Shown: in pieces, positions 2,537-43,910 of the stretch
Layout of the letters: every line of letters begins with the position of its first letter
Position numbering within the stretch: position 1 is the first letter of the stretch
IMG/VR virus record: IMGVR_UViG_3300042392_000853
Coordinates: 573 to 64,572 of that record
Reading direction: 5' to 3' (one strand)
DNA length: 64,000 nucleotides
Origin: a virus
Lineage: Duplodnaviria > Caudoviricetes
Program-made: the position numbers and the translations under genes
The notes under the pieces: generated by a model
Told to the model about the DNA's origin: nothing
The model's input: only the letters and a program-made list of their open reading frames with translations
Database searches by the model: none

Positions 2537-3003
2537 CCGACTGGCTCGAACACACAACCGACACCTGCCCTGTAGACCCGGAGACGGTGGTGGAGGTTCG
2601 GCTTCGTGGCGACTACGTGCGGCCTGCGGATAAAGCTGGTGACATGGATTGGGGCAGCTTTTGGGTGGCGTCCTTCAGGCCGCCGCTTGGTTCGCCGATA
2701 CAGCATCCGCTTGACGTCACCCACTACCGCATCATCACCCCCGCCAAGCCCCCGGAGCCTGAGATGACCAAGACCCACGAGGAAGATGAAGCCTACCTTG
2801 AGGAAGCGCGGCGGCAGGCCGACCGCGAATACTCCGCATACAAGCGCGGCTTTGAGGCGGCGACCAAGCCCGAACCCGACCTCATCACCCTGCGTCTGGA
2901 GTGCATGAAGATGGCTGTGAGCCATTTCAGCATCCTTGATCGCGAGCAGGCCGCAGACCGCCTCCTCCACTACGTCCTCAACGGATCGGTGGACAAGGCG
3001 TGA
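2533..3003 (+). CDS. Hypothetical protein (MTDWLEH..CPV module)
   Basis: ATGA coupling; N-terminal module shared with 1342, 48726 and 56594 genes. Confidence 0.7.
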   Translation: MTDWLEHTTDTCPVDPETVVEVRLRGDYVRPADKAGDMDWGSFWVASFRPPLGSPIQHPLDVTHYRIITPAKPPEPEMTKTHEEDEAYLEEARRQADREYSAYKRGFEAATKPEPDLITLRLECMKMAVSHFSILDREQAADRLLHYVLNGSVDKA

Positions 3004-3079
3004 GGCTTGGGGCATAGAAGGCGACAAGGTCTTCGCGAGCGTTCGGACGCCTTGCTGGCTTAAGAGCCTTTGGGCTTGG

Positions 3080-3154
3080 GCGGGGTTTACGTCGCAAAGC
3101 GGGGGCGCACTGTCAGCGCCGGGCGGGGTTCGCTCCCGCCAAGACCCCGTTCCA
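3080..3154 (+). tRNA. Non-canonical tRNA-like element ending in CCA
   Basis: GCGGGGT(3080-86)/ACCCCGT(3144-50) acceptor-like stem plus T-CCA; GGCGC-ACTGTCA-GCGCC anticodon-like arm; GGCGGG-GTTCGCT-CCCGCC T-like arm; weak D arm and no U33. Confidence 0.35.
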
Positions 3155-3180
3155 CCCTCACGGCTTCGGGCGTGAGTCGC

Positions 3181-3212
3181 AGGGCCGGGGGAAACCTCGG
3201 CCCTTGCTTTTT
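3181..3212 (+). terminator. Rho-independent terminator
   Basis: AGGGCCGGGG-GAAA-CCTCGGCCCT followed by TGCTTTTT. Confidence 0.75.
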
Positions 3213-3305
3213 GCGCTATCCAGCTTGCCCACACGCTCAGGTGTGCGGCCATGCGATAGCTACGACGTATAACCTTCAGATTATGCGCTAGGCCTGCGGA
3301 TATAA

Positions 3306-3372
3306 CTTGTGGCTCATGAAACCCCGATCCGTGAGCCACAAGCCGGTTTGCGTGTCATGCGTGAGCCACAAG
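3306..3372. repeat. Three copies of TGAGCCACAAG (one inverted, two direct 30 bp apart), probable operator
   Basis: 3306-3316 (reverse complement), 3332-3342 and 3362-3372, directly upstream of TTGACA at 3377. Confidence 0.7.
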
Positions 3373-3376
3373 CCCG

Positions 3377-3406
3377 TTGACACCCGCGTGGATCTGGCGC
3401 CACATG
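3377..3406 (+). promoter_or_regulatory. Putative promoter (TTGACACCCGC class)
   Basis: TTGACA -35 and GCCACAT -10-like element; the same 11-mer occurs at 60608 and 62560 on the - strand. Confidence 0.55.
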
Positions 3407-3409
3407 GCC

Positions 3410-3569
3410 TCACGCCCCACCCGGGACTCCTTTCAAGACCACGGGCGACGGGACTTCGAGGCCAGGGCAGCGCCGCAAGGCGTCAACGCGGGCCGGGAGC
3501 GGGGTATTCACGCACCCGTAATGCCTTGGAAGTCGCCGCAGGGCCGGGAGCAATCCCGGCCCTTGCTTT
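3410..3569 (+). ncRNA. Candidate structured ncRNA 2
   Basis: GACTTC-GAGGC(3452-62) pairs with GCCTT-G-GAAGTC(3523-34); GCGCC-GCAA-GGCGT hairpin; lies between a promoter and a terminator with no credible ORF. Confidence 0.55.
3540..3569 (+). terminator. Terminator hairpin
   Basis: AGGGCCGGGA-GCAA-TCCCGGCCCT-TGCTTT; 20-nt core identical to 14488-14507. Confidence 0.7.
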
Positions 3570-3659
3570 ATGCGCCGGCAGGCGGTAGGGTCTCACGTCA
3601 GCGGGCCAATGGTGGCCGGCTACAGTTTGGGCCGATAAGCGGCCCGAGGAGACTGCACA

Positions 3660-3859
3660 ATGACTGAACCCGACGAGGCTATTCTGTGGGCGAGGGAGCG
3701 CGCCGCGAGGTGGCAGGACGAAAACGGCGGCGAGGCTGGCCCCAGCTATCGGAGCGGAAAGCTGGACGGCCTACTCGGTGAGGAGGTTGAGGGCTACCGC
3801 GCCGGTCAGGCCGCATCCGCTGAGCGGATTAAGGCGCTGGAGGAGGCGCTGGCGAAGGC
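3660..3859. repeat. 200-bp inverted dispersed repeat, copy 1 (copy 2 at 57947-58146)
   Basis: Direct comparison shows identity except a few substitutions near the 5' end. Confidence 0.9.
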
Positions 3860-4154
3860 CGACGAACCTCAGTGGTTCTATGCCGACGACGAAGGATCGC
3901 CCTTCGACTCCGTGCATGAGGCCGTCGAGTGGATCTTGGACGAGTTCGGCCCCGACGATGATTTCCCGAACGGCAAGGGCGTTCGGCGCATCGACACGAT
4001 GCGCGACTGCGCACCCATCTTCGCCGCCGTCCGCTGTCGCAGGATCACCGAAGCCGAACGCGCGGGTGGTCGGAAGGGCGACTTTGTGTTCGATGTGACG
4101 GAGTGCGCCACGGAAGCCGAAGCCGAGGCCCTGCTCAAGGAGGCTGACCGGTGA
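3660..4154 (+). CDS. Hypothetical protein, paralog of 57670-58146
   Basis: AGGAG RBS; near-identical 5' and 3' ends to the minus-strand paralog. Confidence 0.8.
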   Translation: MTEPDEAILWARERAARWQDENGGEAGPSYRSGKLDGLLGEEVEGYRAGQAASAERIKALEEALAKADEPQWFYADDEGSPFDSVHEAVEWILDEFGPDDDFPNGKGVRRIDTMRDCAPIFAAVRCRRITEAERAGGRKGDFVFDVTECATEAEAEALLKEADR

Positions 4155-4321
4155 GTGACGATGAACGCATCAAGGCGCTGGAGCTAATGGGTGTGCTGTC
4201 CGAGTTTTTCAATCGCCCTGAGTTAAGCGGGGTGCGGTGGAAGGAACCGGAGCGCGTTACCCACCTCATCCGTCGCGCTGGCTTTCTCGCCGGGTTTCTT
4301 GCCGGGGAGGCTGACCAATGA
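4151..4321 (+). CDS. Small hypothetical protein (56 aa, MSDDERIKALE...EADQ)
   Basis: Hand translation; GTGA coupling; ends in the GAGGCTGACCAATGA junction. Confidence 0.6.
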   Translation: MSDDERIKALELMGVLSEFFNRPELSGVRWKEPERVTHLIRRAGFLAGFLAGEADQ

Positions 4322-4491
4322 ACTTCCGACGCCCTACAGCCTCAGACCTACCAGTCCGCTTTATCGGACACGTTATGCCCAGTCATCCAGCCCGGCCTGT
4401 TACAGACTGGATGGAGGCCACCCGGCCACGGATGGGTGCGACGCAGCGGGCCTATTGCTGGCCGAACCTGACGAGGAAGGACGCGAGATGA
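4318..4491 (+). CDS. Small hypothetical protein (57 aa)
   Basis: Hand translation; ATGA coupled at both ends. Confidence 0.45.
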   Translation: MNFRRPTASDLPVRFIGHVMPSHPARPVTDWMEATRPRMGATQRAYCWPNLTRKDAR

Positions 4492-4667
4492 CTGCTCAAA
4501 CGGCTGCGCTGTTCTTGATGACCGCGGTCGGGGTCGTCAGCCTAGCTTGGTTGACCGACGACTGGCGAACCACACCCACCCGGCAGCGTATCGCTATCGC
4601 CACATGGCTGGCCTTCTGGCTTGGCCCGCCGCTGTATTTCATCTGGACCAAGGGCGTGATGGGATGA
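4488..4667 (+). CDS. Small membrane protein (2 TM)
   Basis: ATGA coupling; hydrophobic segments. Confidence 0.6.
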   Translation: MTAQTAALFLMTAVGVVSLAWLTDDWRTTPTRQRIAIATWLAFWLGPPLYFIWTKGVMG

Positions 4668-40903: not shown

Positions 40904-43159
40904 TCATGTCTCGCTCCTCCGCTTCATAGCCTCAAGCAGCACGTCCTGCACGCTGCGCTTGTTGACGAGTCGGTCCAGCACCATCGCGTCCACCGTCCCT
41001 CGGGCGAGGATGTAGTGGATAAAGACAGGCCGGTCGTAGCCCGACTGCTTCTGGCGCTGCGGGCCGATCCGCTCGATGATCTGGTCGTGTTCCTCAAGGT
41101 TCCAGTTCAGGCCGAAGAACGCGAGGATGTTGCCGCCGTCCTGTAGGTTCAGGCCGTGGCCCGCCGACGCCGGGTGCGCGACCAGCACCGGGATGCGACC
41201 CGCGTTCCAGTCCACAATCGTCTTGGGGTTGTCGTCCAGCGGCTTGGCCCCAGGAACCGCAGCGAGGATCCGCGCCAGATCGCTCTTGAAGTTGTAGGCG
41301 ACCAGCACGGGCATCCCGTTGGCCTCCTCCACCACGCTCTTGAGCGCGTCGATCTTCTCGTCGTGCACGACGGCCCACGAGCCGTCCTCCTTGTAGACCG
41401 CGCCGTTCGACAACTGGAGGCACTTGCTGGTGCGCACCGCAGCGTTCACGGCCTCCACGCCCTCGCCCTCGATGAGCGCCCACATGTCGCGCTCCATCTC
41501 CTCGTAGGTCTTGCGCGCGTCCTTCGGCAACTCAACCTCGATCACGTTGCGGATCGGCTCGTCGACGTCCAAGCCCTTGACCGTCAGGCACACGTCCTTG
41601 AGCCGGTCCTCGATTTCCGCTTGCGCGAACTCACGAGGCTGGAGGCTGTAGCCGTCCCAGCCCTTGGTGAACCAGCGCGCCTCGAACGCCGAGAACGTGC
41701 GACCCAGCCGCTCGCCGCGGTCAACGAACCAGACCTGGCCCCACAGGTCCTTGAGCCCGTTCGGCGCCGGCGTGCCCGTCAGGCCGATGAACCGGCGCGA
41801 CTTGGTGTGCGCCACCTTGGCCAGTGCCCGCGCCCGGGAGCCGCCCTGCCGGGTGCGGTATGACTTCAGTTTGGAGCAGTTATGGACGAGGACCCCGTTA
41901 GCAAAGTATGTAGGTGCTCCTTCAACCTCAAGGTTGAATACAGGGACCAAGCCTCCGTGTTCTTGATCCGAAACACGGTCCACCCCAACGACTGTAGCTT
42001 CTCGGTCTTCTTCCGATCCCGCGCCATACCGAGGTAGGTCCCGTGCGACTGCCCATCCACCTCCAAGCACACCATCCGGCTGGCATCCGCGAAGTCGAGT
42101 TTGTAGTGCGACGGATATCCGGCCCCAGCCCCCTTCAACGACACTATGTGATTCCAGCGGAACCCTTCCGGCAGCAGCGGCGCAATCAGCGCCTCTGTGT
42201 TCGTCATGCCAGTCCCGTTGCCGCCCCGTTTGGCGGGGAACGGCTTGTTCTTCCGGACCTCCGACATCGTCGCCCGATGGGTCTCGGACCATGGCCTTCC
42301 ATAGTTCCAAGCACGCATACCTTCCTGCTCGCGCTTCCGCTGAGTGGCCGTCATGTTTCGGCGGCTCAACTCTCGGTGCTCCGGGCGCCCGGAAACCGCC
42401 TTCGACCGGCAGCTTGTGGAGCAGTACTGGGTCTTGCCCAGTCCCGCCTGCGTGTGCGCTCGGCTGCCCCTTCGCAAGAAGGGCGTCTGACAGGTCGGAC
42501 AGACAATCTCGACCATAGAGCCGCCGACCTCCACAAGCCTCTGCGGGTAGCCATCCGGCGTCAGTAAAGAACGGGTGCGTTTTCGTGGCATAGATTTTAA
42601 CCCCTGAACCTAGGGTCAAACATACCAGATTAAAATCGTTTGAAAAGCGCCGATACACCCTGCGGATCCGGCGCGGCCCAACGTGCGTGAGAACCTCCTC
42701 GCCCTCAGACAAACTCTCGATAGGGCGGTCGCCGCCGGGCGTGGCGACCTGCGTCCCCGCGACGAAGCACTCGTCTGCAATCACCGTCTTGAACGGCCAG
42801 CCCTCGCCGTAGTGCGCGACAAGCCAAGGCACGTTGTCGTAGTTGGTGGCGTAGATGTCAGCAGGAAGGCGCAGGGCGGCCTCCCGCTGCTTGGCGGTGC
42901 CCAACACCGGCACGACCCTTAGCGCCTGCGTGTGAGCCCATTTGGCGGCTTCCTGTGGCCATGTGCTGCTCACCACCCGCTTGGGTGCCAACACCAGTGC
43001 GGGGAACACCTCCTCGACCGTATCCAGCGCGCTCAGGGCCGTCAGCACCGTGACCGTCTTGCCCCCGCCCATCGGCATCCACAGGACGCTGCGGCGCAGG
43101 TTGTAGAGGTGGTCGAGGGCCTCGCGCTGGTAGTCGTGCGGCGTGAAGGTGCGGGTCAC
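40904..43159 (-). CDS. SNF2-type helicase, intein-containing
   Basis: MGGGKT, DE[intein]C, LTGTP, AGHGLNLQ and QIIERI motifs; probable GTG start at 43159. Confidence 0.92.
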   Translation of the reverse strand: MTRTFTPHDYQREALDHLYNLRRSVLWMPMGGGKTVTVLTALSALDTVEEVFPALVLAPKRVVSSTWPQEAAKWAHTQALRVVPVLGTAKQREAALRLPADIYATNYDNVPWLVAHYGEGWPFKTVIADECFVAGTQVATPGGDRPIESLSEGEEVLTHVGPRRIRRVYRRFSNDFNLVCLTLGSGVKIYATKTHPFFTDAGWLPAEACGGRRLYGRDCLSDLSDALLAKGQPSAHAGGTGQDPVLLHKLPVEGGFRAPGAPRVEPPKHDGHSAEARAGRYACLELWKAMVRDPSGDDVGGPEEQAVPRQTGRQRDWHDEHRGADCAAAAGRVPLESHSVVEGGWGRISVALQTRLRGCQPDGVLGGGWAVARDLPRYGAGSEEDREATVVGVDRVSDQEHGGLVPVFNLEVEGAPTYFANGVLVHNCSKLKSYRTRQGGSRARALAKVAHTKSRRFIGLTGTPAPNGLKDLWGQVWFVDRGERLGRTFSAFEARWFTKGWDGYSLQPREFAQAEIEDRLKDVCLTVKGLDVDEPIRNVIEVELPKDARKTYEEMERDMWALIEGEGVEAVNAAVRTSKCLQLSNGAVYKEDGSWAVVHDEKIDALKSVVEEANGMPVLVAYNFKSDLARILAAVPGAKPLDDNPKTIVDWNAGRIPVLVAHPASAGHGLNLQDGGNILAFFGLNWNLEEHDQIIERIGPQRQKQSGYDRPVFIHYILARGTVDAMVLDRLVNKRSVQDVLLEAMKRRSET
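41866..42591 (-). CDS. Zn-finger/NUMOD3/DUF559 (Vsr-like) endonuclease encoded out of frame inside the intein
   Basis: CPTC..YCSTSC, WNYGRPWSETHR..MS, YKLDFA....CLEVDGQSH...RD.K....L..LGWTVFRI; SD-like AGGGG 9 nt before ATG 42591 and GGAGG before ATG 42516. Confidence 0.85.
   Translation of the reverse strand: MPRKRTRSLLTPDGYPQRLVEVGGSMVEIVCPTCQTPFLRRGSRAHTQAGLGKTQYCSTSCRSKAVSGRPEHRELSRRNMTATQRKREQEGMRAWNYGRPWSETHRATMSEVRKNKPFPAKRGGNGTGMTNTEALIAPLLPEGFRWNHIVSLKGAGAGYPSHYKLDFADASRMVCLEVDGQSHGTYLGMARDRKKTEKLQSLGWTVFRIKNTEAWSLYSTLRLKEHLHTLLTGSSSITAPN
41879..42769 (-). mobile_element. Intein (297 aa) at the helicase DExx motif
   Basis: CFVAGTQVATP start, block B ATKTHPFF, block F VFNLEV, block G VLVHN/C. 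Confidence 0.9.
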
Positions 43160-43437
43160 ACCAAGTCGCCGCCGAACAGCTTTTCGGCGTCCACCCGGAA
43201 GCCGAACCCCCGGCGGTTGAGGACCGAGCCTTGCGGCACTTTCTGCCGGATGCGATGGATCACGACCGACAGGTGGGTGTGCGACTTGCGCCATACGGAC
43301 AGCGGCTCAACGTCAAGGCCGATGGCCGTGGCCAGTTGCGCGTTGCTGACGTAGCCCTCGTGCTCAAGCATGTAGGCCAGCGCCAGCGCCTCTTGGTGCC
43401 CGAGTCCGAACATATCGGCCAGTTGCGAGATGGTCAT
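43156..43437 (-). CDS. Winged-helix DNA-binding protein (OmpR C-terminal-like)
   Basis: LSVVIHRIRQKV....LNRRGFGFR. Confidence 0.7.
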   Translation of the reverse strand: MTISQLADMFGLGHQEALALAYMLEHEGYVSNAQLATAIGLDVEPLSVWRKSHTHLSVVIHRIRQKVPQGSVLNRRGFGFRVDAEKLFGGDLV

Positions 43438-43910
43438 ACGATGTGCCTTCCGTCGGTCTTGAGGCGAGGGGGTTTGGGCGAGGCGGACGGCTCCGTGTTT
43501 TTATACATGATGAGCCGGTGCTTCGGGCAGTAGGAGCGGTGCCCCTCGGTGTCGGCGCAGCAGGAGTAGGTCACGTCGCCATCGACGATAGGGAAGGCGC
43601 ACTCACCGAACTTGCGCTCGGTCCACGGACGCATAAGCGGCTCACCCACAACACGCACCTCCTTCACAGGGAACTTGATGATGTTGACGCGCTTCTCGTC
43701 GTGCGCCTTGCGCTCGTTGGGCCGGCGCACAATGCGCGGCGGCTCGGCCTTGACGGGAGCGGCTGGCTTCCCGTGTTTTGCACCCATGCGGTGCATCTTG
43801 CCGATCACGGCTTTGCGCGTGACGCCGAGGATCTTGCCGATATCCACGGCGCTCTTGCCCTCGGTCCAGAGGCGGGCGGCGAGGGCGGTGTTCTCGTCCG
43901 ACCAGCCCAT
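43434..43910 (-). CDS. gcrA: GcrA cell-cycle regulator homolog
   Basis: MGWS......LW.EGKSA..IG..LGVTR.AVIGK.HR.G plus C.FPI..CC...SYCP.H C-domain. Confidence 0.85.
   Translation of the reverse strand: MGWSDENTALAARLWTEGKSAVDIGKILGVTRKAVIGKMHRMGAKHGKPAAPVKAEPPRIVRRPNERKAHDEKRVNIIKFPVKEVRVVGEPLMRPWTERKFGECAFPIVDGDVTYSCCADTEGHRSYCPKHRLIMYKNTEPSASPKPPRLKTDGRHIV

Follow-up and report, generated by a model that had tools for sequence, protein, structure and literature searches.

Inteins whose homing nuclease lies outside the intein reading frame have been described in phages and in cyanobacteria. In actinobacteriophages, non-canonical inteins with antisense LAGLIDADG, antisense Vsr-like, and frame-3 endonuclease VII-like nucleases have been reported, and the layouts are called rare (Gosselin, Arsenault, and Gogarten, bioRxiv 10.1101/2025.01.02.630785); the hosts named in the main text of that preprint are DNA polymerase, minor capsid, terminase, and thymidylate synthase genes, none of them a helicase. 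A cyanobacterial dnaX intein carries an out-of-frame LAGLIDADG nuclease (Phillips, DeSimone, and Gogarten, bioRxiv 10.64898/2026.09.14.751524). Related arrangements are the fractured genes, which combine split inteins with free-standing Vsr-like nucleases (Dassa et al. 2009, PMC2677866), and the ShiLan insertion, a "hidden HNH" within phage methylases (Arsenault et al. 2025, PMC11855218). The prototype EDxHD homing endonuclease, I-Bth0305I, comes from a group I intron within recA (Taylor et al. 2011, PMC3239194; PDB 3R3P). Here, we describe a 64,000-nucleotide (nt) stretch of phage DNA (Duplodnaviria; Caudoviricetes), positions 573 to 64,572 of the IMG/VR record IMGVR_UViG_3300042392_000853 and hereafter called the window, which very probably carries a mobile class-1 intein in the Walker B/motif II site (D-E | C) of an SNF2-type helicase, with a homing nuclease overprinted on the same strand in the +1 frame.

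Like the actinobacteriophage inteins, the intein of the window is contiguous and apparently spliceable, holds its nuclease between the splicing blocks but outside the intein frame, and lacks recognisable structure when that region is read in frame. For the actinobacteriophage elements, invasion by a free-standing nuclease was also the proposed origin, and one Vsr-like case has an HHpred link to 3R3P. They differ, as far as the main text of that preprint describes them, in that the Vsr-like nuclease is antisense and the gene found on the same strand is endonuclease VII-like and in frame 3, whereas the window has a Vsr/DUF559-like gene on the same strand in the +1 frame, within motif II of a superfamily 2 (SF2) helicase. 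The dnaX intein shares the same-strand overlapping open reading frame (ORF) and, in its authors' account, a ratio of nonsynonymous to synonymous substitutions that over the overlap is elevated for the intein frame but low for the nuclease. Intein-plus, mini-intein, and intein-free alleles co-occur there, and its authors read the element as a secondary invasion of a mini-intein; its nuclease, however, is a LAGLIDADG enzyme in a +2 ORF of a bacterial chromosomal dnaX gene and not a Vsr-like enzyme in a phage helicase. The fractured genes resemble the window in that a phage DNA-metabolism gene has an intein holding a Vsr-like gene, separately translated there and presumably so in the window, whose 3' end overlaps the C-terminal part of the intein (by 6-69 bp in the cases of Dassa et al.). 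In those described cases the host is split into two ORFs and the intein acts in trans, whereas here a single stop-free ORF of 796 codons contains a contiguous intein; an unsplit host ORF is also found in 77 of the 84 related loci described below, and only one of them, L054, appears split. The published I-Bth0305I has what is probably the same succession of an N-terminal DNA-binding region and a C-terminal Vsr-fold catalytic domain with the E, D, H, D pattern, but it is intron-encoded and is described with NUMOD-2 repeats and without zinc, in contrast to a four-Cys module and no NUMOD match here. The ShiLan insertion likewise places an out-of-frame homing nuclease inside a host gene that keeps its own frame open, and raises the same question of how a hidden frame is translated; as reported, it has no splicing domains, its insert stays in the host protein, and its nuclease is of the HNH type.

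The IMG/VR record is a complete virus genome of 64,572 bp, in which direct terminal repeats are present and the nuclease occurs once; the G+C content (GC) of the window is 60-65%. All window features given below lie on the minus strand. The helicase precursor ORF (40904..43294), 796 amino acids (aa) as the longest ORF, matches the Pfam family SNF2-rel_dom (expectation value, E, 9e-14) and the DNA helicase family phrog_62 (E 7e-142), and contains in order an SNF2-related N-terminal domain, HINT/intein signatures, and a helicase C-terminal domain. The N-extein (42770..43294) ends in motif II with ...VIADE. It is followed by a class-1 intein of 297 aa or 891 nt (41879..42769), which starts with CFVAGT and ends with VLVHN, and then by the C-extein (40904..41878), which begins with CSKLKS and shares its first 13 nt with the nuclease frame. 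The residues typed as Cys1, block B T62-x-x-H65, the terminal H296-N297, and the +1 Cys are invariant or almost so across 48 aligned sequences. The intein-less helicase of Caulobacter phage RW (454 aa) is 54% identical up to ...ADE and 65% identical from the first post-intein residue onward; since it aligns on both flanks and joins at ...ADE, the insert is placed directly after D-E of Walker B/motif II. The true helicase start is probably GTG 43159 rather than ATG 43294, to judge from the arrangement of the codons: this GTG shares bases with the TGA that ends the upstream ORF (43156..43437), the two forming GTGA (43159-43156), and the RW helicase begins at residues just after it. With that start, the first 45 codons of the longest ORF would be an overlap with the upstream gene.

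In the predicted structural model of the helicase frame, a confident fold is confined to intein residues 1-95 and 260-297 (pLDDT, the predicted score in the local distance difference test, ≥ 89). The N-terminal splicing lobe (residues 1-95, 42485..42769) has pLDDT 89-98 and matches Hint_2 above the cut-off over residues 1-41 (E 9.6e-8). The C-terminal lobe with blocks F and G (residues 260-297, 41879..41992) has pLDDT of about 96 and matches Intein_splicing over residues 259-297 below the cut-off (E 1.1e-4). Among solved structures, 25 HINT/intein chains match the intein at E ≤ 0.001, with the gp41-1 intein 6qaz in first place (E 2.2e-6), and as modelled both lobes fold as a HINT domain. A Pfam search of the intein in the helicase frame finds no domain between Hint_2 and Intein_splicing. 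The linker (residues 100-259, 41993..42472) is stop-free, and its predicted model has pLDDT 37-60 with almost no secondary structure. The approximately 160 residues between the lobes form a tether, predicted to be disordered, and the nuclease codons dictate its sequence as a side effect. Screening the genome of the window with PF14890 returned nothing at E ≤ 0.001, and as this model places even the intein described here under its own cut-off, the result is uninformative on others.

The nested homing-nuclease ORF (41866..42591) encodes 241 aa plus a stop, with an alternative start at ATG 42516, five codons before the CxxC motif. Its frame is +1 relative to the helicase ORF (43294-42591 = 703). 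The ATG at 42591 overlaps the intein codons Y60/A61, just ahead of block B, and the stop lies 13 nt inside the C-extein, which leaves 713 nt of overlap within the intein. Such a stop within the C-extein is found in 3 of 55 loci, the window among them, while in 37 of the 55 the nuclease stops 8 nt before the intein end, across two block G codons. The nested protein matches Pfam DUF559 (PF04480) with E 1.3e-7 and 31.9 bits, above the cut-off of 20.6. Near its N-terminus is a zinc-finger-like module of four cysteines (C31, C34, C57, C61; 42409..42501), invariant in 4/4, with the consensus CxxC...CSxxC and beta hairpins at residues 26-41; helices are predicted at residues 59-115. Residues 128-222 (41926..42210) form the Vsr/DUF559-fold catalytic domain with the putative catalytic residues E177, D179, H183, and D192 (LEVDGQSH...D; 42016..42063), which are invariant in 48/48 aligned sequences. 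The nuclease of the window retains all 19 residues that are invariant over this alignment, these four included. The likeness of the quartet to the EDxHD motif is one of pattern and fold, not of residue-by-residue superposition on the I-Bth0305I active site.

The nuclease model, built from the 48-sequence alignment, has a mean pLDDT of 76, rising to 84-96 over residues 131-220. Its assignment to the Vsr fold is based on re-alignment to solved chains and on a profile search. Model residues 128-227 match the DUF559 protein 3hrl (Z 9.3, root-mean-square deviation 2.6, 76 residues aligned) and Escherichia coli Vsr 1cw0_A (Z 8.6, 2.5, 85 aligned), and the model also matches I-Bth0305I 3r3p_A (Z 8.8, 3.2, 80 aligned). 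The 48-sequence profile finds 3hrl (E 1.4e-9) ahead of 3r3p (E 0.021, 17.7 bits), so that the DUF559 protein is closer and the sequence similarity to I-Bth0305I is marginal. With a single sequence as query, solved structures yielded only 3hrl (E 0.21), and Foldseek with the complete nuclease model returned nothing at E ≤ 0.001. In the nested +1 frame, a zinc finger and a helical module precede a Vsr/DUF559-fold nuclease that is kept by purifying selection. The original prediction, made from the letters of the window, had proposed an 891-nt intein from Cys1 at 42769 to HN/C at 41879 in an open helicase frame, and the ORFs, the residues, and Pfam agree with it. The linker that it called filler without a LAGLIDADG or HNH motif has no Pfam match and is predicted to be disordered; the second same-strand frame, 42591-41866, 241 aa with a stop 13 nt into the C-extein, is borne out by the ORF list, as are the zinc finger and the DUF559/Vsr-like nuclease by the cysteine module, the DUF559 match, and the fold. 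The profile search of both frames that it proposed yields Hint_2 in the intein frame and DUF559 in the nested frame. Its "NUMOD3-like" label was not sustained: residues 25-146 have only weak PHROG matches to non-catalytic parts of HNH/homing-endonuclease families (E 7.8e-5 and 6.8e-4).

The off-frame layout recurs in annotated phages. A tblastn search with the nested protein found matches inside the annotated helicase genes of Pseudomonas phage MR14, Corynebacterium phage phi673, and Vibrio phage CP-T1, every time in the +1 frame of the coding sequence and within an intein inserted after D-E and before Cys. The nested ORF (MR14, L001:2369-3106; phi673, L002:2549-3193; CP-T1, L003:2351-3100) is unannotated in GenBank, where only the helicase coding sequence is given. 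The authors of the phi673 description noted an intein in the helicase of phi673 and none in that of phi674. When IMG/VR was scanned with patterns of the nuclease, 271 relatives emerged, 80 of which were analysed. Together with the three phages and the window these make 84 loci, whose stop-to-stop six-frame translations were searched with hidden Markov models of the N-lobe, the C-lobe, and the nuclease. Both lobes lie in one ORF that spans a +1 nuclease in 77 of the 84, and five more are partial but consistent with this layout. One locus, L054:2350-4583, has the N-extein, the N-lobe, and the nuclease in one ORF of 387 aa, while the linker, C-lobe, and C-extein begin in an overlapping ORF (2931-4583); it may be a natural fractured or split-intein form of the lineage, or a 1-nt assembly error. 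Another, L077:2977-3603, is a free-standing nuclease relative of 208 aa with its own ATG, located between unrelated phage genes with no surrounding intein.

Against the bias of a nuclease-based search, a second scan used only patterns of the intein frame (blocks A and B), and 80 of at least 196 loci were analysed. The same +1 Vsr-like layout is present in 59 of these 80, and two more probably have it. In eight others (L201, L207-L210, L212, L213, and L219; for example L207:2501-3310), an HNH ORF of 180-240 codons in the +2 frame takes the place of the Vsr-like one, with the same blocks A, B, F, and G and the same D-E|C site; Pfam HNH_3 is above the cut-off in 5/5 tested. No report of an out-of-frame HNH nuclease inside a true intein was found in the literature examined. 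Sister inteins L205:2537-3589(-) and L211:2558-3616(-) have an antisense zinc-finger and DUF559/Vsr ORF of 351-353 aa, the layout reported for actinophages, here in a helicase-type intein lineage. L214:2673-3671(+) is an intein of 410 aa whose +1 ORF of 333 codons has a weak, sub-threshold match to the ROS/MucR zinc finger (E 0.0017). Five of the 80 (L197, L204, L206, L217, and L220) are mini-inteins of 127-152 aa without any insert between the lobes and are candidates for a pre-invasion or post-loss state. Among matches in prokaryote genomes and metagenome-assembled genomes (MAGs), 12/55 have the +1 layout, four are partial but consistent with it, and the remaining 39 are ordinary DUF559 genes. 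The 16 with the full or partial layout belong to Akkermansiaceae, Dehalococcoidia, Kiritimatiellia, Pelosinus, Ruminococcus, Polyangiaceae, Clostridia, Brocadiia, Bacteroidales, Lachnospiraceae, and others. With all scans pooled, 100 distinct nuclease sequences occur in the +1 layout, in phages and in MAGs of many phyla. The host proteins include ResIII/Helicase_C, SNF2, and RecQ-like enzymes, and the insertion point follows D-E in 51 of 55 loci and DEAH in the other four. An in-frame nuclease was recognised in no full-size member, the helicase frame having been profile-searched for the window and eight host proteins.

The two frames are under different kinds of selection. In 55 distinct loci with GC of 0.37-0.63, the helicase frame across the nuclease ORF contains no stop codon, versus 540 expected from synonymous shuffling (4-17 per locus), while the third frame has 795 stops versus 727 expected. 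When the nested ORF of the window is shuffled synonymously on its own, the helicase frame acquires 5.2 stops on average, and 0.1% of 2000 shuffles stay open. This avoidance can be followed codon by codon: a nuclease codon ending in T never precedes a codon starting with AA, AG, or GA (0/3549, versus 23% T elsewhere), and the invariant Tyr before Lys is TAC in 55/55 loci, since TAT followed by AAR would create TAA in the helicase frame. As selection removes every stop, the helicase frame can be read straight through by the ribosome. Between the lobes, divergence at nuclease codon positions 1, 2, and 3 is 0.04, 0.035, and 0.162 in ten close pairs and 0.085, 0.076, and 0.311 in a second set of 24 pairs, with amino-acid identities in the nuclease versus the helicase frame of 0.93 versus 0.82 and 0.88 versus 0.66, respectively. 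The most variable position is helicase position 3 in the N-lobe (0.33) and helicase position 1 in the middle (0.32); the C-lobe shows constraint on both frames. Base composition in the window follows the same division. The GC-rich position is helicase position 3 in the exteins (0.88 and 0.92) but changes in the intein's middle to helicase position 1 (0.80), equivalent to nuclease position 3 (0.81). Each frame also casts a shadow on the other: as the aligned codons read, the C-terminal S-T-I-S-K-L-K of the nuclease is the +1 reading of block F (Y-N-I-E-V-E), and the invariant L-Q in the helicase-frame linker is the trace of nuclease Y-K. The expectation that the nuclease frame would be conserved and the intein filler only stop-free thus agrees with purifying selection at the nuclease codons and with the missing stops. 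The locus is a clean natural case of dual coding, in which one frame is informative and the other only avoids stops. For the +2 HNH group the shuffle has little power, with 1.1-2.8 stops expected and 2-14% of shuffles open, and for the antisense group it is uninformative because no stops are expected by construction.

Current mobility of the element is suggested by two contigs of a wastewater run (X10). A 10.8-kb contig from a divergent phage has two differences from the window in the 891-nt intein (99.8% identity), and at least 15 differences in the 159 nt of C-extein and four in the 72 nt of N-extein that it covers. A second contig of 353 nt matches the window flank 41703-41869 with two differences in 167 nt, skips 915 nt, and resumes at 42785 after 24 intervening nt, so that on balance exactly 891 nt are missing. 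One intein is therefore shared by different helicase lineages, and a single helicase lineage has forms that carry it and forms that lack it; the element looks polymorphic and recently transferred between phages. The 24 nt around this junction differ between the alleles, and the next 167 nt are near-identical. The junction, read by eye only, is consistent with a short co-converted tract bringing the +1 Cys. The same by-eye reading of the 24 nt gives eight codons with D-E kept and no Cys at +1, and no weight is placed on it.

These observations are together best explained by a mobile class-1 intein in helicase motif II with a same-strand +1 homing nuclease, a reading in which we have high confidence. 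The free-standing relative L077 and the intein-less relatives, that is the RW helicase and phi674 as opposed to phi673, count in its support. In the proposed cycle, the precursor would be translated through the tether, a step that the open frame supports; the lobes would then associate and splice the intein out to leave an intact helicase, as expected of the families involved. The nuclease, initiated internally at a low level, would cut or nick intein-less helicase alleles near motif II during co-infection, and recombinational repair would copy the intein into the empty allele. The layout itself may have originated when a free-standing nuclease gene invaded a mini-intein.

Several points weigh against this explanation. 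Precursor splicing and target cleavage are both predictions from family membership. The one characterised Vsr-like homing enzyme shows weak sequence likeness to the nuclease (profile E 0.021), and the nested ORF has no Pfam match to NUMOD families at E ≤ 1. The codon-position statistics draw on non-independent pairs from a few clades, and the nearest relatives of the window among the 55 loci of the nuclease scan have a nuclease identity of only 30-39%, so that selection at the level of the family is extrapolated to the window copy. Dual coding slows change by itself and could explain part of the contrast between intein and exteins in X10. On the side of expression, no Shine-Dalgarno sequence is conserved ahead of the nuclease starts, where matching strings are irregular across loci; an ATG within 12 codons upstream of CxxC is present in 35/54 loci, versus 8 and 27 in control frames; a promoter scan of 41700-43500 found 0 sites versus 0.2 expected; and none of the runs listed is on record as RNA. 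The runs X10-X12 and X15 are labelled RNA-Seq but marked as probably DNA, and no expression claim is drawn from them.

The same gaps in expression evidence, namely the lack of recorded RNA among the runs listed and of a strong ribosome-binding site or promoter, would suit a real intein whose nested nuclease is a silent or decaying passenger, its ORF open only because the invasion was recent, and which is in effect a mini-intein with a long tether. The insert-less members of the lineage, five of 80, show moreover that the insert is dispensable for the intein. A decaying gene, however, would not be expected to keep every one of the 19 invariant residues with the catalytic E, D, H, and D among them, nor the third-position GC signature that follows the nuclease frame in the window; purifying selection on that frame is family-wide, and the near-identical intein in a divergent helicase together with the co-occurring intein-less allele argues for current mobility. 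We consider a passenger improbable.

How the nuclease of the overprinted intein is reached by ribosomes bears on a further alternative. An SD-like AGGG lies 10 nt upstream of ATG 42591 and a GGAGG 11 nt upstream of ATG 42516; the original prediction had pointed to such strings before both ATGs, and they are indeed there, but both are weak and they are not conserved. A start codon in the nuclease frame precedes CxxC in all 54 loci that have this motif, and independent translation by internal initiation at ATG 42591 or 42516 is what we infer from the sequence. A +1 ribosomal frameshift would instead yield a fusion of the N-extein, the N-lobe, and the nuclease beside the full-length precursor. 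The offset is +1 in every Vsr-like case (77/84 and 59/80 loci), the DNA of L054 encodes just such a fusion, and the unconserved Shine-Dalgarno sequence fits it as well. Yet common descent by itself would give a constant offset, L054 comes from one metagenome contig that may contain an indel error, and the data force neither a zero-frame stop nor a rare-codon pause, although no search for slippery sites was made. A +1 shift also cannot serve the sister inteins with +2 HNH or antisense Vsr-like genes, and with the start codons in 54/54 loci this makes frameshifting very unlikely, somewhat less plausible than the passenger. Two terminator-like sites were found, both on the plus strand and no more than in shuffled sequence.

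An assembly artefact was addressed with independent contigs. Those of two lake-water runs (X6 and X8) span 41866-42769, and those of X13 match the window over 41762-42485 (nuclease part 41866-42485), in each case with no difference and no indel; none of the three runs is flagged as a possible source of the record. The reading that indels displaced an in-frame nuclease domain, or that the second frame is a chance ORF of the kind common at 60-65% GC, is hardly credible, as these contigs rule out the assembly frameshift that would have spoken against the original prediction, and a chance ORF is ruled out by the synonymous shuffling and by relatives that keep the identical +1 offset at GC as low as 0.37, the third frame being rich in stops (12 in the window) and the nested frame having an above-cut-off Pfam match and a confident Vsr fold.

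Beyond the single locus, the overprinted intein of the window may belong to a large, old, and undescribed intein lineage at SF2 helicase motif II in which the nuclease is never in frame, so that overprinting is a stable end state under two-frame selection and a living form of the intermediate of Dassa et al. 2009; we lean towards this wider view by a little. The lineage seems to gain nucleases by repeated overprinting. On this view, every full-size member seen has an overprinted nuclease, whether Vsr-like in +1, HNH in +2, or Vsr-like in antisense, and the mini-inteins, the free-standing nuclease, and the fractured form would complete the series. Overprinting would then not be a rare accident, and the lineage would supply the intermediate postulated by Dassa et al. 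between free-standing nuclease genes, fractured genes, and canonical inteins. The many independent examples of +1, +2, and antisense genes in one lineage make the "splicing first, nuclease later" model testable.

The original prediction had cautioned that similar architectures may already have been reported, and off-frame intein nucleases are indeed described in preprints of 2025-2026, so that the novelty is narrower. The off-frame principle itself is known. In Creative Commons-licensed PubMed Central articles and bioRxiv main texts, no description came to light in our searches of a helicase intein whose nuclease is Vsr-like and lies in +1 on the same strand, a layout that is here part of a large family. 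The nested nuclease is a hidden gene in all three GenBank phages checked, and long "domain-less" inteins are worth a six-frame reading in annotation pipelines. For engineering, the locus suggests that inteins tolerate a disordered tether of approximately 160 residues between the lobes. In a RecQ-like helicase ORF of 1645 aa (L076:1032-5966), this intein is accompanied by further inteins that bear in-frame LAGLIDADG/Hom_end nucleases, and canonical and off-frame inteins are thus combined in one gene.

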